A DNA stretch of 64,000 nucleotides from Holothuria leucospilota (lineage: Eukaryota), in assembly GCA_029531755.1 (NCBI GenBank), contig CM055976.1, forward strand, positions 6,784,493 through 6,848,492, in the 5' to 3' direction. A program made the position numbers and the translations under genes. Within the stretch, counting starts at the first letter, position 1; the number at the start of each line of letters is the position of its first letter. Shown one piece after another: positions 1,676-64,000 of this stretch. The notes beneath the pieces were generated by a model, which was not told where the DNA came from, searched no databases, and was given only the letters and a program-made list of their open reading frames with translations.

Positions 1676-2384
1676 TTATCCAGGGATGCCTTTTTTACGT
1701 CTCTTCCGCTTAGTGAAATAGAATAGAGGGAAACAAGTGTCATAGATATCACGAAAAGTAGAGTTAAAACGAGAAAACGCCGTAGTTACATCATTATCTG
1801 AGCAAATGAAGTCCCAGTTAAAATTACGACAACAAGTAACAAAATTATCGATATTCCTAGTCGAATAGTTCCTAGAATAATATCCATTATCATTGCTTTG
1901 TTTAGAAATGTCCAAACTTAGGAAAATCGGAAAGTGATCAGTGATATCAGTAATTAATATGCCTGAAACACAATGATTATCAACCCTGTTGGTGAATATG
2001 TTGTCGATTAACGAGGCAGATCTCTCATTTATACGTGTAGGTTTAGTTATAGTGGGTTCAAAGCTATTACTAACAATATTGCTAAGAAATTCATTGGTAC
2101 TATCTTTTAACAAATCAATATTGAAATCACCCATAATGTGACAGGGTTTACTTTCACTTGAAATCAAGTTCAAAATTTTATCAATGCAGTCATTAAAATC
2201 ACGGAGAGGACTCTGTGGTGGCCTATATATAACACCTACTATAACGTTTCTATTTCCTCCACCTTTTTGCGGGATTGTAAGTTCCACAAAAAGACTTTCG
2301 ATGATATCGCTAAAAAGACCAATGTCAGATCGCACAGTAAATTCTAATTCCTCATAAACATATAAACACACCCCTCCACCTTTT
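1676..2384 (-). CDS. LINE ORF2 endonuclease (EEP/APE) domain, middle to C-terminal part
   Basis: The ORF translation carries the KGGGV, ESLFVEL, IYRPP, GDFN and NIFTN motifs of LINE APE-type endonucleases. Confidence 0.75.
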
Positions 2385-2435
2385 TGATTCCTTGCCGAAG
2401 GCAGGCAAGGAATCTATGCGATGGTGATGTCGTGT

Positions 2436-2500
2436 GTGTGCGTATGTGTGTGCGTATGTGTGTATGTGTGTGTATGTGTGTATGTGTGTGTGTATGTGAC
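2436..2500. repeat. (TG)n / (TGTGTATG)n microsatellite inside the element
   Basis: Direct reading. Confidence 0.9.
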
Positions 2501-4130
2501 GCTTAGCTTGTAAACACGATATCTCCAGTTAGCAATGACTGACAGTTTTCATATTTAGTATATAGATTTGTCATGTTGAGAGGAAGAACCCTATTGTTTT
2601 TGGTGGAGGTCAAAGGTCATTTGAGGTCACCAGAGGTCAAAAACCGAAAACCTTGTAAACACGATATCTCAAGATAGCAATGACCGACACTTTTCATATT
2701 TGGTATACAGATTTGTCATGTCAAGAGGAAGAACCCTATTGATTTTGGTAGAGGTCAAAGGTCATCTGAGGTCACTGGAGGTTAAGCTGCAAAAACCTCG
2801 TAAATAGCTTGTAAACACGATATCTCAAGATGGCAGTGACCGACACTTTTCATATTTGGTATATAGATTTATCATGTTAAGAGGAAGAACCCTATTGTTT
2901 TTGGTAAAGGTCAAAGGTCATTTGAGGTCACCAGAGGTAAAAAACCGAAAACCTTGTAAACACGATATCTCAAGGTAGCAATGACTGACACTTTTCATAT
3001 TTGGTTTACAGACTTGTCATGTTGAGAGGAAGAACCCCATTGATTTTGATAGAGGTCAAAGGTCATCTGAGGTCACTGGAGGTTAAGCTGCGAAAACCTC
3101 GTAAATGGCTTGTAAACATGATATCTGAAGATAGCAATGACCAACACTTTTCATATTTGGTATGTAGATTTATCATGTTGAGAGGAAGAACCCTATTGTT
3201 TTTGGTAAAGGTCAAAGGTCATTTGAGGTCACCAGAGGTAAAAAACAGAAAACCTTGTAAACACAATATCTCAAGATAGCAATGACCGACACTTTTCATA
3301 TTTGGTATACAGATTTGTCATGTTGAGAGGGAGAACCCTATTGATTTTGGTAGAGGTCAAAGGTCATCTGAGGTCACTGGCAGTTAAGCTGCGAAAACCT
3401 TATAAACGGCTTGTAAACACAATATCTCAAGATAGCAATGACTGACAGTTTTCATATTCGGGATACAGATTTGTCATGTTGAGAGGAAGAACCCTATTGT
3501 TTTTGGTAAAGGTCAAAGTTCATTTGAGGTCACCAGAAGTAAAAGACTGAAAACCTTGTAATCACGATTTCTCAAAATAGGAGTGAAGGACACTTTTCAT
3601 ATTTGGTATACAGATTTGTCATGTCAAGAGGAAGAATGCTACTGTTTTTGTAGAGGTCAATGGTCATCTGAGGTCACTGGAGTTTAAACTGCAAAAGCCT
3701 CATAAACGGCTTGTAAACTCGATATCTCAAGATGGCAATGACCGACACTTTTCATATGTGGTATATAGATTTGTCATGTTGAGAAGAACCCTATTGTTTG
3801 CGGTAGAGGTCAAAGGTCATCTGAGGTCACCGGAGGTAAAACTGCGAAAAGCTTGTAAATCGCTTGTAATAATGATATCTCAAGATAGCAATGATAGACA
3901 CTTCATATTTAGTGTGTAGATTTGTCATGTGGAGAGGAAGAGCCCTATTGTTTTTGGTGAAGGTCAAAGGTCATTTGAGGTGTCTGGAGGTCAAAGACTG
4001 AAAATCTTGTAATCATGATATCTCAAGGTAGGAATGAAGGACACTTTTCATACATGGTATGTTGATTTGTCATGTTGAGAGAAAGAACCCAATTGTTTCT
4101 GGTAGAGGTCAAAGGTCATCTGAGGTCACT
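2500..4130. repeat. Satellite array. Monomers of about 148 and about 160 bp alternate, giving a higher-order repeat of about 305 bp with roughly 11 monomers
   Basis: The anchor ttgtaaacacgatatctcaagatagcaatgac recurs at 2507, 2655, 2808, 2955, 3107 and onward. A and B variants alternate: ...gaggtcaccagaggtcaaaaaccgaaaacc versus ...gaggtcactggaggttaagctgcaaaaacctcgtaaatagc. Confidence 0.85.
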
Positions 4131-4510
4131 GGAGGTCAAAAACAAAATTTCCTAAGAATTCCCAAGATCGTCATATGTGGTCACCAGAGGTCAAAAAGCA
4201 AAATTTCCCAAGAATTCCCAAGATTGTCATATGGGGTTACCACAAGTCAAAAGGCAAAATTTCCCAACAATTTCCAAGATTGTCATGGGGTCACCAGACA
4301 TAATAAAGCAAGAATTCCCAAGTGTCATTTGGGGTCACTAAAGGTCAGAAAGCAAAATTCCTCGAGAATTCCCAAGATCATCGTCTGGGGTCACTAAAGG
4401 TCAAAAAGCAAAATTTCCCAAGAATTCCCAAGATTGTCATCTGGGGTCACCAGAGGTCAAAAAGCAAATTTCCCAAGAATTTTCAAGATCCAAGATCCAT
4501 TGGAGGTCAG
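4130..4510. repeat. Short-period satellite of about 57-60 bp, derived from the 3' part of the large monomer (ggtcaccagaggtcaaaaagcaaaatttcccaagaattcccaagattgtcat...)
   Basis: Visible 57-60-bp periodicity. It shares ggtcaccagaggtcaaaaa with the 148-bp monomer. The same sub-array sits at the 3' end of copy 2, at 62590-62810. Confidence 0.8.
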
Positions 4511-4676
4511 AGGTCATTTGAAGTCATCAGAAGTTAAATACCAAATGCATTGAAAAACACGATATTTCAAGACAGGTATTAGATACTTGTAATACTTGTG
4601 AATTTGAGGGATAAACCTCAGTGCAACAAAGCATCCCCATTTGGCAAGGAATCACTAAGCCTTTGGGCTTTCTGGT

Positions 4677-5233
4677 TTATTATTCATGTTACATTCAACC
4701 ATTTTATAGTTACTAAGTTGGATAAGTGGGGGCAAACAATCACTGAACCATGTTTCTGTAAAGCCTAAGACGGTAAAAGTGTGGTCTAATATCGTTAAGA
4801 GGTTAGAAATGGAATCAAGGTTCTTTCTCAAGCTCCTGCTGTTTAGATGGAAAAGGGAAAAATCACCATGGGTAAGTTTATTAAAACTATCAATGTTGTA
4901 GTAATTACTGGAATCGATTGTGAATGTCTCATAGAGTGAAGAGAGACTTTGCGAGAGAAAATCACCACCTTGATTCATGGAGCGAGTGTCTTGAATTGCA
5001 TCTCTAAAGGCGTTATCATCAATTAAGTGATTAAATGGTAAATTAACACAACAGTCCCCGCAAGTCCAGGGCGAAATGGTACCGGTATTATTTTGGGTAA
5101 CGCATAAGTTGTGGAAATATTTTTTACAAATACAACATTTACTTACTAAACTTCTACTTGCTTCATAATCAATGGATCTTTTACACTTACTGCAGAAAAC
5201 AAACATAAATGAGAGTGACACACAAACAAACAA
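4677..5233 (-). mobile_element. 5' part of the same CR1/L2-like LINE ORF2. It holds a PHD-like Cys-rich zinc finger and the N-terminus of the APE endonuclease. The Helentron-like insertion separates it from 1034-2384
   Basis: ORF 4655-5233 (-) reads CSKCKRSID...CCICKKYFHNLC...WTCGDCC. Further on it reads FSLFHLNSRSLRKNLDSISNLLTILDHTFTVLGFTETWFSDC, the EN N-terminal signature (ETW motif). The last codons, ...KPESPKA, are read from element sequence. Together with 2384 the EN is complete except for about 8-10 residues. Confidence 0.7.
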
Positions 5234-5338
5234 ACAAAATATAGGCTACTCACAAGATTAAGACAAGTAATACTCGAGTATCGAGACCTTTGGATAATAC
5301 AGGAAATTTACATATTCATTGCAGATGTTTCAAGTCAT

Positions 5339-6876
5339 TTGGACCCCAATATTGGGGCTACAGCAGTTATTGAATGTGACTATGTAAAAGGAGACAGTAT
5401 GGATGAGAATTTAGATAGCTCTTTTAGACAAGACAACGAGGATTTACTGTCACTTCCCCATATGGAACCTACCGAAACTATTGCAGATGTTGAAATTAAT
5501 CCTAACCTCCCATCAGAGCAAATTAGGCAGATTAAAAGAGTATTGGGAAATTTTCATGACATTCTGACTGACGTAACACTCCCTTACTCACCCACCAAAT
5601 TAATTTGACATCAGATGAACCTATTAGGGTGAAACAATACCCCCTCCCCCATGCTACGCAAGATGTGATACAGAAAGAAGTTGCAAAAATGTTGGAAATG
5701 GATGTTATTGAAAGGTCAAATTCACCATACTGTTCACCTGTTGTAATCGTTAAGAAAAAGGATGGAAGTAACAGATTTTGCGTGGATTACAGACGTTTAA
5801 ATAGAGTGACAATTTTCGATGCAGAACCTATGCCTAACCCAGATGAAATATTCGCACGTTTAGCTAACTCCAATTACTTTTCGAAATTAGACTTAAGCAA
5901 AGGTTATTGGCAAATACCCGTTGAAGAACATGCCAAACCATTGACTGCTTTTTCAACACCTTCAGGGTTATTTCAATTCAAGGTTTTACCCTTTGGCCTT
6001 GTTAACTCTTCAGCAACATTTAATCGTATGATGCGTATTTTATTGTTTGACCTAGACCATGTTGACAGTTATATTGATGATATTCTCATTTATACTTCCA
6101 CTTGGGAAAAACATATCGAAATTCTAGGGGAAATTTTGAAAAGGTTACGAAAAGCAAACCTTACAATTCGTCCTAGTAAATGTAGCCTGGGAATGGAAAA
6201 CATTGAATTTCTGGGACACATCATTAGCAGAGGGAAAGTATACCCCCAGGATTGTAATACAAACAAAATTCAGAATTCCCCTCGCCCTCAAACCAAAAAA
6301 CAGCTTCGTTCATTTCTGGGTCTGGCGGGCTATTACCGAAATTTTATCCCAAATTATGCTGCAATAGCCGCCCCACTTACAGACAAAACGAAGAATAAAG
6401 AACCAAACCAAATTGTTTGGGGAGATAGCCAAGAAATTGCTTTCTCCACTTTAAAGGAAAAGCTGACTAGAAAACCAATTCTTCACCTCCCAGATCTGTC
6501 CAAACAATTCACGCTTAGAACAGATGCCTCAGATATCGGTCTTGGTGCAGTCCTCCTTCAAAACTTCCATGACGAATTATTCCCCGTAGCGTTTGCTAGT
6601 CGGAAACTTTTGCCCAGGGAAAGGGCGTATTCAGTAATGGAAAGAGAGTGTCTAGGTGTTGTCTGGGGTGTAATCAAGTTTCAGAGATATTTATATGGTA
6701 AAGAGTTTGTCCTGCAAACGGACCACGAACCACTTGCATTTATGCAGAAATCCCGTATGACAAACAATCGTATTATGCGATGGGCACTAGCTTTACAGCC
6801 TTATAAGATAAGAATAGAAGCTATTAAAGGCTCTGAAAATGTAGGGGCCGATTTTTTGAGCCGTGTTGTAAATTAG
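5339..6876 (+). mobile_element. Ty3/gypsy-like LTR-retrotransposon pol fragment. It contains reverse transcriptase and RNase H only. No protease start, integrase or LTRs are visible
   Basis: ORF 5605-6876 carries the RT motifs SPYCSPVVIVKKKDGSNRFCVDYRRLN, LDLSKGYWQIP, FKVLPFGLVNSSATF, YIDDILIY and FLGHIIS. The RNase H motif TLRTDASDIGLGAVLLQ is also present. ORF 5339-5608 is the upstream pol part, joined with a frameshift near 5600. Confidence 0.8.
5605..6876 (+). CDS. pol polyprotein fragment (RT-RNase H) of the LTR retrotransposon
   Basis: Same motifs as the parent feature. A stop at 6876 is followed by no integrase. Confidence 0.75.
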   Translation: MTSDEPIRVKQYPLPHATQDVIQKEVAKMLEMDVIERSNSPYCSPVVIVKKKDGSNRFCVDYRRLNRVTIFDAEPMPNPDEIFARLANSNYFSKLDLSKGYWQIPVEEHAKPLTAFSTPSGLFQFKVLPFGLVNSSATFNRMMRILLFDLDHVDSYIDDILIYTSTWEKHIEILGEILKRLRKANLTIRPSKCSLGMENIEFLGHIISRGKVYPQDCNTNKIQNSPRPQTKKQLRSFLGLAGYYRNFIPNYAAIAAPLTDKTKNKEPNQIVWGDSQEIAFSTLKEKLTRKPILHLPDLSKQFTLRTDASDIGLGAVLLQNFHDELFPVAFASRKLLPRERAYSVMERECLGVVWGVIKFQRYLYGKEFVLQTDHEPLAFMQKSRMTNNRIMRWALALQPYKIRIEAIKGSENVGADFLSRVVN

Positions 6877-13839: not shown

Positions 13840-14115
13840 CATATAGTTCTGATTTGGATTGCACCATCACCTATACATTCGGTATTAATGCACCAGTGTG
13901 TTTTTAATGGTTAAACTTATATATTATGATTATCAGTGGTGTATTTGAGGAGCCATTAGGCCATTCCCCCGTCACTGACGCCGATTATTTTAGTACCTAA
14001 AATAAAACACAAAATTTTACTTCAAAGGTAGCATATGTGGCACCAGATTGCATGTAAGGATACCTTATTTGTCAAAAATTTTCAAAGGGTAGGGGGTGAT
14101 GCCTTTTTTTTTCTT
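13840..14115 (+). repeat. R1 repeat copy, partial, ending in a poly-T immediately before the LINE
   Basis: Matches the reverse complement of 10040-10390 and the plus strand of 17560-17700. Confidence 0.7.
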
Positions 14116-14129
14116 TTAGTACCTAAAAT

Positions 14130-14505
14130 ACGTCGGAGCTTGCCTTGCAATCATAGGCCGGTCAGTTTAACCAGTGTTGTGTGCAAAGTTATGGAATCTG
14201 TAATCAAGGATTGTTTGCTTAAATATCTTTTAGATAATGGGTTACTCAATCTGTCACAGCATGGTTTTTTACCGAGTAGATCTTGTGTTACTAATTTACT
14301 AAGCTTTCTTGAGGATGTTTCCTTATCTCTTGACTGTGGTCACAGTGTTGATGTCATTTACCTTGATTTTTCAAAAGCCTTTGATAAAGTTCCATTAGGT
14401 AGACTTATGGTTAAACTGCATACTAGGTTAGGCATCAGGGGCAGTTGTGCTGACTGGATAAATTCATGGCTCAATGGTAGATCTCAGAGAGTTGTACGTT
14501 GTTAA
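14130..14505 (+). CDS. LINE RT fragment, N-terminal motifs
   Basis: Translation motifs as listed in the parent feature. Confidence 0.7.
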
Positions 14506-14865
14506 TGGTAATTTCTCTTCTTGGAAAGAAGTTACAAGTGGAGTTCCACAGGGTTCTGTTCTTGGCCCGCTTCTTTTCTTAATTTTCATCAATGATATTG
14601 ATAGCTCTCTCACATCTAGTATTAGTAAGTTCGCTGATGATACTAAGCTTTATAGGAAGGTTAGTGATAAGGATGATGCCTCATTACTGCAAAAAGACTT
14701 GGATAGGTTATTTTCATGGTCTCAGACTTGGCAAATGTCTTTTAATGCAGATAAGTGCAAAGTCCTTCACTTAAGTTGGTCCTAAAAATTTCAGCTATGA
14801 TTATAACATGAATGGTAGTATTCTGAGTGATGTGACTTTTGAGAAGGATCTGGGTGTAGTTATTG

Positions 14866-15233: not shown

Positions 15234-15899
15234 ACAGTGTGCAGCTACTGCTGCTAGGGCTAATAGGGTGCTTGGATTGATCAAGAGGAATTTCAGTAGT
15301 TTTAGTAAAGAAATTGTACTGTATAAGCAGTTGGTAAGACCCCACCTCGACTATGCAGCCCAGGCTTGGAGTCCCTTCTATGAAAAGAACAAGCTTCTTT
15401 TAGAGCAAGTTCAGAGGAGAGCCACTCGCCTTATACCCGAGGTGAGACACCTACCTTATCATGTTTGACTTAAGCATCTTGGGCTTACCACCCTTGAGTT
15501 GAGAAGGATTAGGGGGGGACATGCTTCAGGTGTACAAATTTCTCTCTGAAAGGAATCCTTTGTCCTCTTGCAATTATTTAAAGGTTCAATGTAATTCTCG
15601 GGTTCGAGGCCATTGTAAGAAGCTAGTTATGAATTTTGCAAGGCTCGACATTAGGAAGTTCAGCTTTTTCTCATAGAGTTGTTAACGAGTGGAATAGTCT
15701 GCCTGAGTGGGTAGTTAACTCCACATCTGTGCACTGCTTTAAGGTTAACATTGACAAGTTCTTCCATAAGTGTGGTAGAATCTAATTGTGCTGGGCTCAT
15801 TTGGTGTTGGTTGGTTCTTTGTTTTCAGTTAAGGTTGTATGGACTTCAGGGCATCTTATGGGGCCTTAGCCCTCCTTTGCCCTTTAACCCCTTACTCAA

Positions 15900-16590
15900 A
15901 ATCCATATCTGGCTTTATATCTGGAAATATCTGGTTGATTAAAGACTTTATATGGCCATATAAAGCCATATATAACTTGATTAAAACACAACCCAGATAT
16001 GCATATAAAGTTTGGTATGGCCATATAAAGCCAGATATAACTTGATATAATCGTGATCCAGATATGTATATTAAGTTTGATATGGCCATATAAAGCCAGA
16101 TATAACTTGATAAAACTGTGATCCAGATATGTATATAAAGTTTGATATGGCCATATAAAGCCAGATATAACTTGATAAAATGGTGATCCAGATGTGTATA
16201 TAAAGTTTGATATGGCCATATAAAGCCAGATATAACTTGATTAAAACATAACCCAGATATGCATATTAAGTTTGATATGGCCATATAAAGCCAGATATAA
16301 CTTGATATAATCGTGATCCTGATATGTATGTAAAGTTTGATATGGCCATATAAAGCCAGATATAACTTGATAAAATGGTGATCCAGATATGTATATAAAG
16401 TTTGATATGGCCATATAAAGCCAGATATAACTTGATTAAAACATAACCCAGATATGCATATTAAGTTTGATATGGCCATATAAAGCCAGCTATAACTTGA
16501 TATAACCGTGATCCAGATATGTATATAAAGTTTGATATGGCCATATAAAGCCAGATATAACTTGATATGCTAGATATGCAAATGAGCATT
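15900..16590. repeat. 60-bp satellite of about 11 monomers (tatggccatataaagccagatataacttgatWaaa...gatccagatatgtatataaagtttga). Two monomer variants alternate
   Basis: Exact 60-bp spacing of ccatataaagccagatataacttga at 16021, 16081, 16141 and onward. Confidence 0.9.
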
Positions 16591-17084
16591 TTGTTAGTTT
16601 GTTTTATTATTTATTTGATTTGATTCTTGGATTATGCTTGTTACAAACTAAGACATGTTTTGGATACAGCATCACCTTCCCAGACATTGCAGTTATTTTG
16701 TGGCTACACTTCTGTTAATACCGCAGTGGACTAAGTGAACTTAGGCAAATGATTTGCATATTTGGGCGGAGTTTGTATCTAAACCTACATTTTTCATGAT
16801 TTAGGAAGTTGAAAGTAAAATATGCACCACGCAGTAACCAAAATTTAGAGTCAAATACGTAATTAAGTTTAAAATAAGAAGCCCATATCACTGTGATTAC
16901 ATAAAATAGGAAATTTCAAGGCATTTTTCTGTTCACTGTTATGAAATAAGTTGAATTTATGTACTTAAGTCAATTCAACCTAATACTTACATTAAATTCT
17001 AATTCATGGAGCACTTAAACATTGTTTTCTGGTGTTCAAAGTCTCCATGAGGAGTGTGGACTATAAGTCCTAACTATGATTCAT

Positions 17085-17520
17085 AACTAGAGCAGATCTG
17101 TGCCATATAAAGGCTTGATCCAGATAGAACTTTATCTGGCCATATATGGTTTTTATCCGATCTGATATAAATTCCATATCTGGTGCAGATATGGGCCAGA
17201 TATAAATTTCCATATATGGGCCAGATATGGGCCATATAAAGTTTTATATGGGTCATATATGGCACAGATATGGGCCAGATATAAATCTCTTTATATGTGG
17301 CAAACATGGATTTTCCATATCTGGGCCAGAAATGGAGTAGCCATATATGGGGCATATCTGGGCCATATAAAAGTGAAACTTTACCTGGGCCATATATGGC
17401 CATATATGGCCTTTATATTATATCAAGTTATATCTGCCCAATTCTTGTACAAGCCAGATATGAATTCCATATCTGGCCCAGATATGGGCCAGATATGAAA
17501 TCCCATATCTGGGCCATATA
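17085..17520. repeat. Degenerate satellite related to the 60-bp unit. It is rich in palindromic (g)ccatatatgg(c) and ccagatatgggcc motifs, which are CArG-like CC(A/T)6GG
   Basis: Direct reading. Many ggccatatatgg, ccatataaag and cagatatgggccagatat repeats occur in both orientations. Confidence 0.8.
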
Positions 17521-17559
17521 TGGATTTTGAGTAAGGGACCTGTTATGTTATGTTATGTT

Positions 17560-43100: not shown

Positions 43101-44910
43101 CTGCGTCGGCCACCGTCCTCTTCTATATCACGCTTAAGAGCAGAGCACATGAGATCTCTTACAACATGATTTTGTGTCTCTATTTTGTGTCTCATCTCAT
43201 TTTGTCCTATCATCAACCAAATAATGTTACGTACAGTTCCCTACCTGTATGGAGATTTAGGTGGAGGAATGCACACCTCTAATACCAAACAGCCTGGACA
43301 TAACTTTCCATATGCTATATGCAGACTTGGATGTCCAGTCGGTCATATGTAATGTAATGTAAATTTATTCTTTTAAGGCAACTCCCAGGCTAGTACAGTG
43401 TAATGCTATGCCACTTAATTTTGCAGAGGGTTACATGCTGTATAGTACCACAGTATTATTGCAGGGGGTTGTATGCTAAACACAGTGTTATTGAAAAGAG
43501 TTGATGTCAAATAGCCACCCTGTGGTCCAGAACAGTTCACTATACCATTTGTGTTTTAGGGAATAAGGGAATTGGCTGTCACATAGTACCGCTACCTCCC
43601 TGTTTCAGTGCTTTGTAATGCTATACCATTGTGTTATTGCAGGGAGTTACAGTCAAATACTTACCACATCCCCATGGTGATTGTTTGGTCTGTAAAGTCT
43701 TATGCATGCAGTATTTGATTTAGATGTGTTCAAATTTTATAACTGTACAGAGGTGATGTGTACTTGTCAGAAGGTATTTTCCCTCACGTTTTTGATCAGT
43801 GGTGTGTTTGTTGAAGAGACAAATCTTCAAGCCTGCCTACAGTATTTTATTGTCTGAAGTTCAAATGAAAAAACTTCCCTGATAACTAGGAAACAAAAAC
43901 TCAAACATATGTTCCAAACAAGCAAGCTGCATTAGTCATAGTAAAACTTGTGAGTTGTGTGCTTTGGTGGTGAAGTAAGTTAATGGTTGATAGTTGTATA
44001 CACACTGCCACTCTGCAATGTGAGCACAGCAGTGCACTAGTGTCATGTGCATTGGGAGGTCAGTGTGGTTACACAGCGTCATCAAACCTTTTTAGTTAGA
44101 CATGTAAGTTTATGGATACTGTACTGCAAATCCTTGGTAATCAAACCCTTTTCCCACCAGGCTGAGAGCCACTTAGAGGAGGATACTACTGTAAATTTAT
44201 GGCAACCCAAAGTGAATGGATAGTTCAGAATTGCCTGTGTGAACTTTTGTGTCAGCTGTCCCATGTGTTATTACTGGGTGATAACTGTAATGCATTGGTA
44301 TATTCAAGGAGGGAGTATACCATACTGTAGGTGGGCTGGGTGTCCCCCTTCAAATTTTGCTTTGGAAGGTGACTTAGGTGCAAAATGGTGTCATTTTCTT
44401 CCTTTTCTTGTGTGTTTATGTTCTGCATTTTTCCTGGAAAATCAAGATATTTTAAGGCACTTTGGGACCACTTGAATGTTACTATTTCAGTTTGAAGGCC
44501 AACTTTTGAACACTCGTGAAGTTAGCTTCAAAACATATTTTGGACTGTTTGGTCTGAGATGCAACTGAATTATAATACTCACAATGCTTAGCTTTTATTA
44601 GTAGGACTTCTTGGCCCTGCTTGTAATTTGCAACATGTGTGCTTACAGTAACTAAGAAGGTGAATGTCCGTATTGGTCTTTGTGGTTGTTTTGTATGAAA
44701 GTTTTGACCAGGGGCAAGCCTCTAACCAAGGGAGACTGGAGGGATGCAGCCTCCTCTAGAAAATTTTTTGCCTCCCCTAGAAAGTCAAAAATTTCCACTG
44801 CCTTAATGTATTTTAGTATATATCTTGTACAGTGTCACTCCCTTAGGAGGCTGTGTGGCCCCCTTTCAGAACTTTGTGTGGCTACAGGCCTTGAATGGGG
44901 TCATAATTTT

Positions 44911-45641
44911 TGATTCTTTGCGTAAGCAAAAGGAATCTGTGATGATGTTTTTGCGTGTGTGTGAGTGTACGGTATGTGATGCTGGTTGTAAACATGATAT
45001 CTCAAGAATGTTAACCTTGAGTGATATCATACTTGGCATGCAGGTACCCCTTATTGAGTAGATGATCCCTATTGTTTTTGGTGGAGGTCAAAGGTCATTT
45101 GGTCAGGAGAGGTCAAAAGGTCAAAACCTTGTAAGAGCAATATCTCAAGAAGGGTAACTGTGCGGAATGTCATAGTTGGCATGTAGATTGCCCATAATAC
45201 AGTAAGTAGATGATCACTATTGTTTTTGATTGAGGTCAAAGGTCATTTGGGGTCACCAGAGGTCAAATGGTAAAAACCTTGGGAATTGCTTGTAAACATG
45301 ATATCTCAAGACAAATTGGTTTGAGGGATCTCATACTTACCTTGTAGATTGCCCATATTAAGCAGATGACCCCTATTGTTTTTGGTGGAAGTCGAAGGTC
45401 ATTTGGTCACCAGAGTTCAAAAGGTCAAAACTTGTAGACATGATATCTCAAGTAGGATAACTGTGAGGGATCTACCACTTGAAAGGTTTCAAAAGGTCAA
45501 AACCTTATTAACATGATATCTCAAGTAGGATAACTGTGAGGGAGCTTATGCTTGCCATGTGGGTATCATTTCATGTTTGTTACAATATATCCACATGGCA
45601 AGGAATCACTATGCCTTTTGGCTTTCTGGTTTGTAAAAGTA
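44911..45641 (+). mobile_element. Helentron-like element, copy 3, short and diverged. Termini are 5' tgattctttgcgtaagcaaaaggaatc and 3' ggcaaggaatcactatgccttttggctttctggtt. It carries about 4 satellite monomers
   Basis: It has the same terminal architecture as copies 1 and 2. The internal units ...ttgtttttggtggaggtcaaaggtcatttggtcaggagaggtcaaaaggtcaaaacc are related to the 148-bp monomer. Confidence 0.55.
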
Positions 45642-60017: not shown

Positions 60018-61040
60018 GTAAGTATATCTGGAAGCATACTGGTATGTCAATGCCCCCTCAAATCAGTATTGTAGCTGTAATCCCATGAAAAAGCCATGAA
60101 TTATACCCCCCCCCCCCCTTCATAATTTGTCTGTCTATGTAAGGACTTGATATACCTGGAAAAGGTAAGGCTGAATGCCAGTCAGCTGGCACAAATTTGG
60201 CAAGGTACTGAGGTTTAGCAAGAGAGAAATCAAGTTAGAAACCAAGAAAATGTAGGGCATCAAGTAGAAAAAGTACAGATGGCATCAAGATTATTAAGGC
60301 CTTTGGTGTTGGCCATTTTTAGGGGCATGAAGGCAAGGTAGGGGAACCCCAAAACCATGGCTTGTGGTGCATGTGGTCATTTCAAGCCCTGCCATGGGTA
60401 TAGCTAAGTGAAGATGGAGGTGCTCAAAATGTGTGTTTCATTGTATGGAGGCAATAAAAATAAAAAATTTTTACCCACAGTAGATTGATTTTAGAGCAAC
60501 TGAGCTTGTAAGTTTACCACGTTGGTAAAGCCTGAATGCACTTTAATTTTCTCTTCATAGATCTGTATTTTAGTTGGTCTGTATTTTCAAGCTGTCATTT
60601 ACCAGTATATCTTGATGTGTCACTAGAACACTATTTGTCTGATCATGTGTTGTTTGTAAATCATTGTGAGACTTGAGTTGATATCAATCAAACAACAGAC
60701 AAGGCCATCATAGATGTTGGTTGAATTTCATTTTTCCGATGATATTATGCCTATTTAGTTTTTATTGACTCAGCAAGAGAGTTAACTGTTATTAAGTGTG
60801 ACTCAGTTAGTACAAAAATACTTTTCAAGGCTCAAGCTGTTGATTTTAAAACATATAACTCAAATAGAGTTAACTGTGAAATCTGACTCAGTTTAACAGT
60901 TTTATAATGAGTAACTTCACTTCATGGTCCAGATTAAAGACCATAAGTAGGACTCAGTGTAGTTTTTGATTCCTTGCCGAAGGCAGGCAAGGAATCTATG
61001 CGATGGTGATGTCGTGTGTGTGTGTGTGTGCGTGTGTGTG

Positions 61041-61690
61041 CACTCACAGACACCTCCTTAGCGGGACATGGGCAGCCGGCGAGAACTAAGCTCTCGCATG
61101 TCTTTCCTAGCTCACGCGCGGCTCGAAACTGGCGTAGCTGCCTGAGAATTCCGTCACTGGAATGAGAAGTCTCGCGCGGCTGCACGTGCCTGCCTTGCGA
61201 GCAGCCCGCCCTCCAGACACGTACGTCTACCGGGTGAGTTGGAGGCCAGCCAAGCTCATGGGGAAATCCCGTGAATTCCTTACCGGGTCCTGTGTACGTG
61301 TACCGGTAAGGCAGCGAGGGTGCGTATGTGTGACCCGAAGCTGTGTGTGCATGTCTGAGGCTGCTGTGGGCATGTGTGTGCACTCACAGACACCTCCTTA
61401 GCGGGACATGGGCAGCCGGCGAGAACTAAGCTCTCGCACGTCTTTCCTAGCTCACGCGCGGCTCGAAACTGGCGTAGCTGCCTGAGAATTCCGTCACTGG
61501 AATGAGAAGTCTCGCGCGGCTGCACGTGCCTGCCTTGCGAGCAGCCCGCCCTCCAGACACGTACGTCTACCGGATGAGTTGGAGGTCAGCCAAGCTCATG
61601 GGGAAATCCCGTGAATTCCTTACCGGGTCCTGTGTACGTGTACTGGTAAGGCTGGGTGGGTGCGTATGTGTGTGTGTATGTGACGCCTAG
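61041..61690. repeat. Two near-identical tandem copies (period 340 bp) of a GC-rich, CpG-rich unit (gcactcacagacacctccttagcgggacatgggcagccggcgagaactaagctctcgca...). They are absent from copy 1
   Basis: 61041-61380 matches 61381-61690 with about 6 mismatches. Each unit is bounded by (TG)n. Copy 1 passes directly from (TG)n to ...tgtgacgcttagcttgtaaacacgat. Confidence 0.85.
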
Positions 61691-62590
61691 CTTGTAAACA
61701 CGATATCTCAAGATAGCAATGACCGACACTTTTATTATTTTGTATATAGATTTTTCATGTTAAAAGAAAGAAACCCATTGTTTTTGGTGGAGGTCAAAGG
61801 TCATTTGAGGTCACCAGAGTTCAACAACTGAGAACCTTATAAACACAATATCTCAAGATAGCAACGATGTACACTTTTCATATTTGGTGTACAGATTTGT
61901 CATGTCAAAAGGAAGAACCCTATTCTTTTTAGTAGAGGTCAAAGGTCATCCGAGGTCACCAGAGGTGAAACTGTGAAAACCTCATAAACGGCTTGTAAAC
62001 ACGATATCTCAAGATAGCAATGACTGACACTTTTCATGTTTGGTATATAGATTTGTCATGTTGAGAGAAAGAACCCTATTGTATTTGGTGAAGGTCAAAG
62101 GTCATTTGAGTTCACCGGAGGTAAAAGCTGAAAAGCTTGTAATCACGATATCTCAAGATAGGAATGACCGACACTTTTCATATTTGGTATCTAGAGTTGT
62201 CATGTTGAGAGAAAGAACCCTATTGTATTTGGTGGAGGTCAAATGTCATTTGAGGTCACCAGAGGTCAGAGACTGAAAACCTTGAGATCACGATAAATCA
62301 AGATAGGAATGACTGATATAGATTTGTCATGTTGAGAGGAAGAATGCTATTGTTTTTGGTAGAGGTCAAAGGTCATGTGATGTCACCAGAGGTCAAAAAC
62401 CGAAAACTTTGTAAACACGATATCTCAAGTTAGCAGTGACCAACACTTTCATATTTGGTATACAGATTTGTCATGTCAAGAGAAAGAACCCAATTGTTGT
62501 TGGTGAAGGTCAAAGGTCATTTAGGGTCACAGGAGCTAAAAAACTGAAAAGCTTGTAGTGACAATTTCTCAAGGTAGGAATGATGGACAC
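61690..62590. repeat. Satellite array of about 6 monomers, the same 148/160-bp family as 2500-4130
   Basis: The anchor cttgtaaacacgatatctcaagatagcaatgac recurs. A and B monomer variants alternate. Confidence 0.85.
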
Positions 62591-62810
62591 TTTTGATATT
62601 TAGTAAAATTTCCCAACAGTTCCCAAGATTGTTGTATGGGGTCACCAGAGGTCAAAAAGCAAAATTTCCCAAAGAATTCCCAAGATCGTAATCTGGGGTC
62701 ACCAGAGGTCAAAAGCAAAATTTTCCGAGTATTCCCAAGATCTTAATCTGGGGTAACCAGAGGTCAAAAAGCAAAATTTGCCAAGAATTTTCAAGATCCA
62801 AGATCCATTG
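62590..62810. repeat. 57-60-bp sub-satellite (ggtcaccagaggtcaaaaagcaaaatttcccaa(a)gaattcccaagatcgtaatctgg)
   Basis: Same periodic unit as 4130-4510. Confidence 0.8.
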
Positions 62811-64000
62811 GAGTTGAATCCCTTTCAAGACACTTCTGTTTTCCTTTTTGTTATATTTGGTTGTGTTCAGAGGTCATATGAGGTTAGCAGGGGTCAAATT
62901 GTTAAAACATCATAAAATGATGTATTCAAGAAAGATAAATTTGAGGGATAAAGCTCAGTGCAACAAAGCATCCCCATTCGGCAAGGAATCACTAAGCCTT
63001 CGGGCTTTCTGGTTGTTAAATGTGACTCAGTTAAGGAGGTAAAACACTTTGTGGCCTAGATGCCCTTCATGGCCCAGCTACCCTTCATGGCCCTTCATGG
63101 CCCAGCTTCACAGCCTAGTGGTTTTCGTTGCCTGCATATACTTCATGGCCCAGACTTTTTGCTGTGAGTGACTGAGTTCTGGTGTGAAAATATCTTTCTT
63201 TTTTATGCTCCAGGATTTTAGTTTATTGAATCTGTGCATGTTAGCACTTAATTCTTTGGCTTTATGAAATAAATATTTATTTGAAATAATACAGTATGTT
63301 ACATTGTTTGATTTAGAATACCTATTGTTAGATACAAGTAAATGGAATAAAATGTAGTAAATGAAACTAAAATGAATAATCTGGAAGTGAAAAGAAGGGC
63401 CTAAGCTCAAATCAAGCTTTGATATGTTAGAGGGGTACTTATTCTAAGCAATCTTGTGAAATTTCTATTGAAATCCGATGTGTGGTTCTCAAGATATCAG
63501 CAGATAAAGTTGTCACATTTTCAACAGAAAGTGAACTTGGAGCAAGCACATATTATGTCATAGCCTCACATTAATTAGCAGTCTTTTGTTTTTCTTTAAA
63601 CTTTATCACCAATTTTCTCCTGAACAAGCAAATGTTATTAGAATACGATTGCATGAGAGGCATGAGAAAATTACAAACTTCACATTCCTAACGGGGAGGT
63701 CCTATCCCTATTAATTTCAAGTTCAACACAACAGACTGAAAAAATAAAAGAAACAAAGCACTCCTTATCAATGTGAGGAAGTGATATCAGGGAGCTGCAG
63801 CCTAATGATTTAACTCCTCCTTGCCTCAAGCTCACTTTGCTTTACAAATTTAGTTACTTCTTTTGCTTATATCTCGAGTAATACATGTCCAGTTTGAATG
63901 AAAATTTTACCAAAATGCATAGATTTAGTTCCTCTTTCACAGATGAAAAGAAAATTTTTGCTTAAACCCTTCTTTTAAGAATCATTGTCCAAGGGCTAGT

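Follow-up and report, generated by a model that had tools for sequence, protein, structure and literature searches.

What kind of mobile element do the three look-alike insertions in this stretch of the Holothuria leucospilota genome represent, and does it carry satellite DNA from place to place? We analysed the whole stretch of 64,000 nucleotides (the window, 64 kb), and conclude, with a probability of about 0.85, that the three insertions belong to a single holothurian family of HINEs (non-autonomous Helentron-associated interspersed elements). This assignment rests on published structural hallmarks that are present here, namely subTIRs, a 5′ inverted repeat (IR), a microsatellite, tandem repeats, a palindrome, an oligo-T/TT target and the lack of coding capacity, with the descriptions of Thomas et al. 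2014 (PMC4067079) and Vojvoda Zeljko et al. 2020 (PMC7492417) as references. A first-pass annotation had already proposed a HINE/DINE-TR1-type element, and this interpretation is retained here, the tests for Helitron1, MITE and SINE identities having failed.

Ends and architecture of the three copies

The three copies lie on the same strand and, as had been claimed, share one architecture (Table 1), with common ends, sharp boundaries and unrelated flanks; the end of copy 2, at 45631, had been misplaced at 45641. In the 5′ to 3′ direction, each element shows a T-run, then a 5′ subTIR of 12 nt and its nested hairpin, a (TG)n microsatellite, found inside the 5′ end where it had been annotated, and the 145/156-nt satellite array. 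These are followed by a second array of 56-nt repeats (copies 1 and 3), a tail, the reverse-complement subTIR, a small palindrome and the terminal ...TCTGGTT. Similarity between the copies begins at the T-run before GATTC and ends after ...CTGGTT, and the flanks are mutually unrelated and without paralogues within the window. The ORFs inside the elements are only frame-shifting read-throughs of repeats and have no coding capacity; those of the GC-rich block of copy 3 gave no Pfam match above the gathering threshold.

Table 1. Features of the three elements and of the interrupted LINE ORF (window positions)
Feature	Position	Strand	Remarks
LINE endonuclease ORF, downstream half (...KGGGVCLYVYEE...)	1679..2384	-	Exo_endo_phos match; interrupted by copy 1
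Copy 1	2385..4677	+	
5′ junction T-run (T5), copy 1	2381..2385	+	same T5 before GATTC in copies 2 and 3, L004 and AJ17 primer
5′ subTIR TGATTCCTTGCC, copy 1	2385..2396	+	inverted repeat with 4643-4654
Internal IR GGCAAGGAATC, copy 1	2404..2414	+	11-bp hairpin with 5′ subTIR, 100% complementary
(TG)n / (TGTGTGTA)n microsatellite, copy 1	2431..2498	+	
Central satellite array, copy 1	2508..4143	+	11 monomers
Second array, copy 1	4115..4490	+	about 7 x 56-nt repeats
Tail, copy 1	4491..4642	+	degenerate version of conserved monomer block, 73-81% identity
3′ subTIR GGCAAGGAATCA, copy 1	4643..4654	+	exact reverse complement of 5′ subTIR; 23 nt from 3′ end
3′ palindrome AAGCC-TTTG-GGCTT, copy 1	4657..4670	+	
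3′ terminus TCTGGTT, copy 1	4671..4677	+	boundary ambiguous among T's 4676-4678
LINE endonuclease ORF, upstream half (...GFTETW...NYKMVECNMNN)	4678..5245	-	interrupted by copy 1
Copy 2	44911..45631	+	diverged short relative
T5, copy 2	44907..44911	+	
Hairpin GATTCTTTGC-GTAA-GCAAAAGGAATC, copy 2	44912..44937	+	followed by short TG-rich tract
Array, copy 2	44986..45565	+	about 3.7 monomers, 65-75% identity to copy 1 monomers
3′ subTIR, copy 2	45597..45608	+	followed by palindrome with one mismatch
Copy 3	60967..63014	+	55-nt head as in copy 1
GC-rich 340-nt x1.9 block, copy 3	61025..61672	+	within microsatellite
Array, copy 3	61692..62605	+	about 6 monomers
56-nt array, copy 3	62605..62798	+	followed by tail
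3′ subTIR, copy 3	62980..62991	+	
Palindrome AAGCC-TTCG-GGCTT, copy 3	62994..63007	+	

Both ends are specific to the family within the window. A scan for TGATTCCTTGCC and its reverse complement with at most one mismatch returned seven matches against 0.33 expected, all of them inside the three copies, and the 35-nt 3′ end, GGCAAGGAATCACTA(A/T)GCCTT(T/C)(G/T)GGCTTTCTGGTT, occurs exactly three times against 0 expected. The pairing of the 12-nt 5′ repeat with a reverse complement 23 nt from the 3′ end, earlier attributed to every copy, is exact in copies 1 and 3 (perfect over 15 nt in the latter), but the 5′ arm of copy 2 carries one or two changes. A (TG)n-type tract was found in all three copies and in five short contigs from ENA (L004, L005, L006, L007 and L008), which are the scope of our DNA-level comparison outside the window.

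The 45-nt head sequence of the element is TTTTTGATTCCTTGCCGAAGGCAGGCAAGGAATCTATGCGATGG. In copies 1 and 3 the 5′ hairpin consists of a perfect 11-bp stem with a 7-nt loop; the DNA fold of copy 1 has an energy of -11.8 kcal/mol (z -4.6), and the three sequence variants, from copies 1/3, copy 2 and L004, fold with z scores of -4.6, -3.75 and -3.3, respectively. Compensatory-looking changes had been reported in the hairpin of copy 3. The variant hairpin is in fact that of copy 2, copy 3 being identical to copy 1 over its first 55 nt. Compensatory evolution of the 5′ hairpin, in the form put forward, is not supported: only three distinct sequences are available and they include no clean double substitution, and the register of the copy 2 hairpin against that of copy 1 is ambiguous, since the two differ by a C-to-T change plus a 2-nt bulge or indel.

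At the other end, copies 1 and 3 and L005 all carry the palindrome AAGCC-NNNN-GGCTT, whose loop reads either TTTG or TTCG. The annotated GC-rich palindrome is present in copy 1. It is thermodynamically weak, with a stem of 5 bp at about -4.1 kcal/mol whose stability (z between about -1.3 and -1.8) does not significantly exceed that of shuffled sequence, and it is broken by one stem mismatch in copy 2.

Target site and class of the element

The insertion site is best resolved for copy 1, which splits the endonuclease ORF of a LINE on the opposite strand. When copy 1 was removed in silico, the two halves of this ORF were rejoined in frame. A Y-to-GGG motif spacing of 11 residues is shared by 81/83 homologues and an ETW-to-GGG spacing of 25 by 70/87, and only a six-T empty site reproduces these spacings. 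The junctions of copy 1 contain eight T's in all (five at 2381-2385, three at 4676-4678), of which at most two can come from the insert; with a six-T empty site, the insert supplied two of the eight and entered at T|T with no non-T duplication. The T|T target postulated earlier is thereby supported for this copy.

Every junction of copies 1, 2 and 3 and of L004 sits in a T-run, and beyond the T's no direct repeats are visible at the junctions of copies 2 and 3. Paralogous empty sites for the flanks of any copy were not found within the window. Both flanks had been described as T, which applies to copy 3 only if its end is set at 63013; with the end at 63014 the right flank is G. In copy 1, no base other than T can have been duplicated, and a T-only duplication of 1-2 nt is indistinguishable from T's borne by the element. 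Exactly five T's are found at 5/5 known 5′ junctions (copies 1-3, L004 and a primer of the sea cucumber marker AJ17, see below), which would suggest that the T's belong to the element, whereas the LINE reconstruction makes those of copy 1 mostly host-derived.

The junction data are also compatible with an element running from GATTCC to CTGG that duplicates a 2-nt TT target, as an inverted-repeat, cut-and-paste DNA transposon resembling MITEs would do. DINE-1-like elements were once classed in this way. An inverted repeat does join the two end regions here, and TT on either side of a GATTCC...CTGG core fits all three copies and the six-T empty site arithmetically. We nevertheless consider a MITE or other TIR transposon improbable. 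The 3′ repeat is not terminal but lies 23 nt inside, followed by an extension (palindrome plus TCTGGTT) that is conserved in 4/4 known 3′ ends, those of the three copies and L005, in a sample comprising only four or five ends of each kind. Moreover, the extreme ends, GATTCC... and ...CTGG, have no inverted-repeat relation to each other, and no non-T duplication was found. Thomas et al. 2014 (PMC4067079) showed that the ends of elements arranged in this asymmetric way are those of Helentrons and not those of TIR transposases.

A still smaller chance is given to a spread of the satellite itself, by segmental duplication, ectopic recombination or reintegration of extrachromosomal circles, with the conserved ends being merely array-adjacent sequences and not termini. 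Array length does differ among the copies, and L005, L006 and L008 show (TG)n and satellite behind a different upstream sequence, with no canonical head. However, identical sharp boundaries recur at three loci whose flanks are unrelated, copy 1 is cleanly inserted in a LINE ORF that can be restored in frame, and the ends bear the hairpin and subTIR structures expected of transposition signals.

A non-autonomous canonical Helitron (Helitron1 type) is very unlikely. Such elements share with ours a presumed rolling-circle copy-and-paste movement, the lack of duplicated non-T bases, a hairpin close to the 3′ end and the existence of non-coding, non-autonomous derivatives, and the GC-rich block of copy 3 could be read as the heterogeneous or captured internal sequence of a Helitron. 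Their 5′-TC, 3′-CTRR and A|T target are all missing here, where T(n)GATTCC... and ...TCTGGTT form the ends within a T-run, and canonical Helitrons have no subTIRs (PMC4067079). Finally, a SINE or other retroposon with tandem repeats is the least likely reading: high copy number, lack of coding capacity and a location among LINEs would suit it, but the element has neither a Pol III-type head (tRNA, 5S, 7SL or other Rfam match) nor a poly(A), A-rich or simple-repeat 3′ tail, nor the usual 7-20-nt target-site duplication, and Rfam returned no match for the whole window at gathering thresholds or for copy 3 at E up to 1.

Satellite arrays and their conserved block

The body of the elements is dominated by the main array, whose monomers alternate between 145 and 156 nt (not 148 and 160 nt, as first measured) and form a 301-nt dimer higher-order repeat. 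Monomer numbers agree with the first-pass annotation (copy 1, 11; copy 2, about 4; copy 3, about 6), and the orientation of the array relative to the ends is constant across all copies. The dimer repeats are 92-94% identical within copy 1, compared with up to 90% between copies. The second array and the GC-rich block of copy 3 had not been annotated before. A 28-nt block of the 56-nt repeats also occurs in the 145-nt monomer, in its 3′ part, and the second array is partly derived from the main one. With their dimer higher-order repeat, derived second array, degenerate edge monomers and copy-specific homogenisation, these arrays exemplify birth and turnover inside a transposon.

The best-conserved part of the monomer contains four direct AGGTCA half-sites, AGGTCA-a-AGGTCA-tttg-AGGTCA-ccag-AGGTCA (DR1 + DR4 + DR4). 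This block is near-identical across subfamilies with monomer centres diverged to about 50%, and the H. leucospilota copies keep it, in translation, as the recurring motif VKGHLRSPEVK. Compared with the rest of the window, the elements are about 50-fold richer in it, the counts inside and outside being 70 and 30 for AGGTCA, 17 and 0 for DR1, and 21 and 1 for DR4. In a reading that we regard as improbable, the HINE family would disperse across the holothurian genome arrays of putative protein-binding boxes, either nuclear-receptor-type response elements or a satellite-maintenance box. Selection on the element would maintain these boxes, or the host would have co-opted them, and the block would not be a neutral by-product of an origin from a 10-nt sub-repeat.

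Dispersal, known relatives and proposed mechanism

Database matches outside the window support a genome-wide dispersal of the satellite in H. leucospilota. The translated satellite matches 24 H. leucospilota "proteins" encoded on at least 14 chromosome-scale scaffolds, as well as 13 ENA contigs, in line with the earlier proposal that the family disperses satellite DNA. One of these proteins, P0254, reproduces the order seen here, with the 145-nt monomer followed by 56-nt repeats. At least 24 "hypothetical proteins" of this species are translated satellite, and are thus likely annotation artefacts. At the DNA level, L004 provides another 5′ end (gTTTTTGATTCCTTGTC...GAAAGGAATC, then (TG)n), and L005 contains (TG)n, a monomer, the tail and the 3′ end GGCAAGGAATCATTAAGCCTTTGGGCTTTCTGGTT. 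The Gypsy RT ORF of the window has no exact counterpart among recorded proteins, and its homologues, at most 65% identical and spread over many phyla, give no clue to the species. No HINE copy was present in contigs L001 and L002, which carry Gypsy RT homologues, and the termini and a satellite k-mer had no matches in viral or metagenome contigs.

The 5′ end is also conserved in a second sea cucumber. In a string search of the literature with element k-mers, in which the other matches were due to chance, the primer CTTTTTGATTCCTTGCCTG of the Apostichopus japonicus microsatellite marker AJ17 was found to contain the 5′ end of the element, adjoining an (AC)n repeat.

The closest structural parallel is Cg_HINE, which has relatives in bivalves in the pearl, DTC84 and MgE elements (PMC7492417). 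Like the elements described here, Cg_HINE has a left flank in which an 11-12-nt subTIR and a complementary IR 1-12 nt away precede a microsatellite, short arrays in the centre with satDNA-like monomers of 140-180 nt in a single orientation (two consecutive arrays in some elements), and a right flank with a subTIR and palindrome inside the last 60 nt. It also targets oligo-T/TT, in its case without target-site duplication, is often inserted in other transposons and has conserved boxes in its monomers. It differs in its mollusc host, the element here being found in an echinoderm, and in its mostly 4-nt microsatellite units such as GTCY, in place of (TG)n. In addition, our main array is built as a dimer higher-order repeat of 145/156 nt, and the 56-nt array is partly derived from it. 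No sequence similarity to Cg_HINE was found: 4/5 element k-mers are absent from the supplements of PMC7492417, and the seven occurrences of TTTCTGGTT in its array-sequence table are taken as chance 9-mer matches. The bivalve context implied by the first-pass annotation does not hold for the host, which is a sea cucumber.

DINE-1 and DINE-TR1 of Drosophila (PMC4067079) likewise combine 13-nt subTIRs, an IR 3-22 nt from the 5′ subTIR, a microsatellite, central tandem repeats and a 3′ stem-loop with a TT target and T-strings at the boundaries, and the central repeats can grow into satellite DNA (Dias et al. 2015, as cited in PMC6947457). These elements belong to a different phylum and share no sequence similarity with ours. 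Moreover, three DINE-1 families have a known autonomous Helentron with ends about 98% identical, whereas none is known for the sea cucumber family. HINE-Mo of the mite Metaseiulus occidentalis (PMC4067079) has a subTIR 2-4 nt from the 5′ end, a palindrome near the 3′ end, a T-rich target and, in some copies, microsatellites or tandem repeats. Its 3′ subTIR is 38-60 nt from the end, compared with 23 nt here, and its subTIRs are themselves palindromic, whereas here the hairpin is formed with a separate downstream IR, as in DINE-1.

The architecture and its conservation between copies and species, the dispersal to unrelated sites, the precise entry into a T-run of the LINE ORF and the local dynamics of the arrays are seen in the data; that the movement relies on rolling-circle chemistry, and which protein mobilises the element, we infer. 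The 5′ cis signal would be the subTIR folded into a hairpin with its nested inverted repeat, and the 3′ signal the reverse-complement subTIR followed by the small palindrome and the conserved 7-nt terminus. Both are presumably recognised by the Rep/helicase(/endonuclease) of an autonomous Helentron. In a copy-and-paste reaction of single-strand, rolling-circle type, this protein would then place the element in oligo-T sites (T|T), leaving the target site unduplicated. No Rep or helicase domain was detected in 20 selected window ORFs of at least 87 aa, nor an autonomous Helentron with matching ends among the large ORFs of the window; Helentron proteins have been reported in Echinodermata, in the sea urchin (Thomas et al. 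2014, PMC4067079). The microsatellite and the two consecutive tandem arrays (145/156 nt and 56 nt) lie in the body, where the arrays change locally by expansion, contraction and homogenisation, so that each transposition would seed a new short satellite array.

A practical consequence concerns sea cucumber genetics: at least one microsatellite marker, AJ17, lies on the end of a multi-copy transposon, which may relate to null alleles or Hardy-Weinberg deviations. Satellite-carrying HINEs are already known in oysters and flies, and what is new here is the sea cucumber host; no paper pairing "Helentron" with "sea cucumber" was found in the searched literature. The link between Helentrons and dispersed satellite DNA, drawn so far from bivalves and Drosophila, is now extended to holothurian echinoderms.

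Termini and anatomy of the three copies

The three copies with shared ends claimed by the first-pass annotation are real. Across the whole window, the 12-nt subterminal inverted repeat (subTIR) TGATTCCTTGCC and its reverse complement match seven times at ≤1 mismatch, against 0.33 expected by chance, and all seven matches are confined to the three claimed loci; the 35-nt 3′ end, GGCAAGGAATCACTA(A/T)GCCTT..GGCTTTCTGGTT, occurs exactly three times in the window (0 expected). When the ends were aligned with their flanks, similarity between copies started at the five-T run before GATTC and stopped after ...CTGGTT, beyond which the three loci are unrelated. The flanks had no other match in the rest of the window. 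The end of copy 2, previously placed at 45641, was corrected to 45631.

Coordinates of the element copies, their parts and neighbouring retroelements.
Feature	Position	Strand	Remarks
Copy 1	2385-4677	+	
T-run (T5) before GATTC, copy 1	2381-2385		
5′ subTIR, copy 1	2385-2396		
Inverted repeat (IR), copy 1	2404-2414		complementary to 5′ subTIR, 7 nt 3′ of it
(TG)n-type microsatellite, copy 1	2431-2498		
Satellite array, copy 1	2508-4143		11 monomers
Second array, copy 1	4115-4490		~7 x 56 nt; missed by the first-pass annotation
Tail, copy 1	4491-4642		~150 nt
3′ subTIR, copy 1	4643-4654		
Palindrome, copy 1	4657-4670		AAGCC-TTTG-GGCTT
Terminus, copy 1	4671-4677		TCTGGTT
Copy 2	44911-45631	+	
T5 before GATTC, copy 2	44907-44911		
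Copy 3	60967-63014	+	
T5 before GATTC, copy 3	60963-60967		
GC-rich, CpG-rich unit, copy 3	61025-61672		340 nt x1.9, 97% identity; inside (TG)n tract
T5 before GATTC, contig L004	1918-1922		also in the AJ17 primer
LINE split by copy 1	744-2384 and 4678-5245	-	endonuclease + start of reverse transcriptase (RT)
Gypsy-type RT/RNase H ORF	5572-6873	+	434 aa; directly downstream of split LINE
Another RT fragment	14032-14782	+	at ~14 kb

In copy 1, the 5′ subTIR and the IR form a hairpin with a perfect 11-bp stem (DNA fold -11.8 kcal/mol, z -4.6). The 3′ palindrome is energetically weak (5-bp stem, z -1.3 to -1.8) and is disrupted by one mismatch in copy 2. The element is non-coding, with conserved, structured and asymmetric ends. 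Copy 3 has the layout of copy 1 plus a GC-rich 340-nt block within the microsatellite, absent from copies 1 and 2; Rfam had no match for this block, nor did Pfam above its gathering threshold; it might be filler or captured DNA, or else a third kind of tandem repeat. Copy 2, a short relative, has diverged: its identity to the other copies is 76% in the head, 80-82% in the last 60 nt and 65-75% between monomers. The variant 5′ hairpin, formerly assigned to copy 3, belongs to copy 2, the first 55 nt of copy 3 being those of copy 1. Its changes had been read as compensatory, a reading that is not supported: the hairpin of copy 2 is kept through a 2-nt bulge/indel instead of paired substitutions, and there are three variants only. 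Copy 2 also bears an extra 16-nt inverted repeat (45551-45566/45587-45602; 94% complementary, 20-nt spacer) that overlaps the start of the 3′ subTIR, a 3′ hairpin missing from copies 1 and 3.

Classification and insertion site

The published non-autonomous Helentrons (HINEs) taken for comparison are DINE-1 and the HINEs of mite and Culex (PMC4067079), and the Cg_HINEs of oyster (PMC7492417). Their subTIRs measure 11-15 nt, with an IR a few nt past the 5′ subTIR. They contain a microsatellite and central tandem repeats, which keep a fixed orientation and in some cases form two arrays in succession; the 3′ subTIR precedes a palindrome located in the final 60 nt, targets are oligo-T or TT, and coding capacity is absent (PMC4067079, PMC7492417). 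Every one of these structural hallmarks is present here. The initial HINE identification was correct. Since at least 11 subTIR bases are identical in all copies, they belong to one family by the criteria of Thomas et al. (PMC4067079); identity over the last 60 nt is 96.7% between copies 1 and 3, and copy 2 sits at the 80% subfamily border. A SINE was rejected, there being no pol III head, tail or target-site duplication, as was a MITE, since the 3′ repeat lies internally, with a conserved extension of 23 nt beyond it. The 5′-TC, 3′-CTRR and A|T target of canonical Helitrons are all absent. A Pfam scan of 20 selected window ORFs of at least 87 aa revealed no autonomous Helentron.

Copy 1 splits a minus-strand LINE endonuclease ORF (ORFs 4658-5245 and 1679-2413), and deleting 2385-4676 (equivalently 2386-4677) restores the frame (...GFTETW...NYKMVECNMNNKKGGGVCLYV...). 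The two junctions carry eight T's, of which the frame permits only three or six in the empty site. In a set of 120 homologous LINE proteins, the Y-to-GGG spacing is 11 residues in 81/83 and never 10, and the ETW-to-GGG spacing is 25 residues in 70/87; only the six-T site reproduces these spacings, with a gap-free alignment there. The target of copy 1 was therefore ccacc-TTTTTT-attatt, so the insert contributed two T's and the GATTCC...CTGG core, sits between T's, and duplicated no non-T base. Insertion into this oligo-T tract was precise. Of the T|T target without duplication proposed earlier, the position between T's stands; the joint could lie at more than one place within the T-run, and a T-only duplication of 1-2 nt is compatible with the data, an ambiguity that historically also attached to DINE-1 (PMC4067079).

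At each of the five 5′ junctions known, in copies 1-3, L004 and the AJ17 primer, a non-T base is followed by exactly TTTTT-GATTC. Such constancy would suggest element-borne T's, in line with the "string of Ts (2 to 5) ... part of the element" of Thomas et al. (PMC4067079), but this conflicts with the LINE reconstruction for copy 1, by which at least three of the five T's of that copy come from the host. Two readings are a target preference extending beyond TT (e.g. TTTT|T), and a T-run whose length was reset after insertion.

The surroundings of the copies are transposon-rich, and no host gene was recognised among the window ORFs scanned. A separate element of ~1.65 kb (~15889-17537) has terminal inverted repeats of 25 nt at its boundaries, CCCTTACTCAAAATCCATATCTGGC (24/25 matching), and contains a tandem array of 65 nt x9.5 (15950-16567) as well as CCATATATGG/CCAGATATGG-rich 36-nt repeats (17164-17523); this second transposon with tandem repeats inside it has true terminal inverted repeats.

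Satellite arrays and the AGGTCA block

The monomers, first reported as 148/160 bp, alternate in copy 1 between 145 nt (A) and 156 nt (B), forming a 301-nt dimer. Identities there are 90-94% for A-A and B-B and 84-89% for A-B, with the most diverged monomers at the array edges. In copy 3, the order is A-B-A-A-A(deleted)-A, and the identity of these monomers to those of copy 1 reaches only 76-90%, indicating that the arrays were amplified or homogenised separately per lineage or locus; internal arrays vary and homogenise independently. The 56-nt unit and the 3′ part of the 145-nt monomer have a 28-nt block in common (89-93% identity), and the copy 1 tail contains a degenerate copy of the conserved monomer block (73-81%). 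The tail relic, the derived 56-nt repeat and the diverged edges fit either arrays grown from the element's own sequence or simple decay of array edges. They are compatible as well with the "filler capture" model discussed for oysters (PMC7492417).

The least ordinary feature of the element is a cluster of four direct half-sites, AGGTCA-a-AGGTCA-tttg-AGGTCA-ccag-AGGTCA (DR1, DR4, DR4), in every monomer (2508-4143, 44986-45565, 61692-62605). The elements (5.1 kb) hold 70 AGGTCA, 17 DR1 and 21 DR4, against 30, 0 and 1 in the other 59 kb of the window, and the cluster is ~50-fold enriched. The block is the best conserved monomer segment (column identity 0.98), nearly identical among diverged subfamilies and conserved across subfamilies and species. 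As delimited, it also covers the 56-nt repeats. It could be the neutral relic of a sub-repeat, or a protein-binding box.

Host, spread and proposed transposition

The host is a sea cucumber rather than a bivalve. Among named relatives of the LINE that copy 1 interrupts, the best come from Holothuria leucospilota and a sea urchin. A translated satellite stretch (2989-3276) matches at least 24 H. leucospilota "hypothetical proteins" at 52-82% identity, on at least 14 chromosome-scale scaffolds, which have 14 different sizes (39-104 Mb). These proteins (at least 24 within P0243-P0275; 56-159 aa), which match the translated satellite or the 56-nt repeat, are likely annotation artefacts. One of them, P0254, joins a translated 145-nt monomer directly to translated 56-nt repeats, the same two-array order as in the window. 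Thirteen further matches are ENA contigs, Tara Oceans marine metagenomes among them. Contigs retrieved through these proteins supply further ends. In L004, a 5′ end (gTTTTTGATTCCTTGTC-ggaggt-GAAAGGAATC) precedes (TG)n and monomers resembling those of copy 2; L005 runs through (TG)n, one monomer and a tail to GGCAAGGAATCATTAAGCCTTTGGGCTTTCTGGTT, where the contig stops. The Apostichopus japonicus microsatellite marker AJ17 (JF289195), with repeat (AC)5GC(AC)4, has a primer, CTTTTTGATTCCTTGCCTG, that corresponds to the 5′ end of the element (PMC3189756); Holothuriidae-like and Stichopodidae genomes therefore both contain the family or, at the least, its head.

In some copies on ENA and Tara Oceans contigs, L005 (3700-3930), L006 (3600-3840) and L008 (60-430), (TG)n and satellite are preceded not by the canonical head but by sequence rich in CCGAGGAC/GTCCTCGG palindromes. 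In L005 and L006, an inverted AACCAGAAAG (reverse complement of terminal CTTTCTGGTT) lies ~200 nt upstream and might mark where an adjacent inverted element ends. Contig L003 carries a lone 59-nt match to the monomer start (4202-4260, ~77% identity), without tandem repetition, and also the closest relative of the split LINE (51% amino-acid identity).

Helentron proteins have been reported in echinoderms and DINE-1-like elements noted in sea urchin (PMC4067079), and our literature search found no paper pairing "Helentron" with "sea cucumber"; the element is of a known kind, in a host group where a description appears to be lacking. It has dispersed to unrelated sites. By established knowledge of Helentrons, a Rep/helicase(/endonuclease) would act on it in trans, recognising the 5′ hairpin/subTIR and the 3′ subTIR/palindrome; a single strand would be transferred by rolling-circle-type copy-and-paste, and each insertion would seed a new short satellite array.
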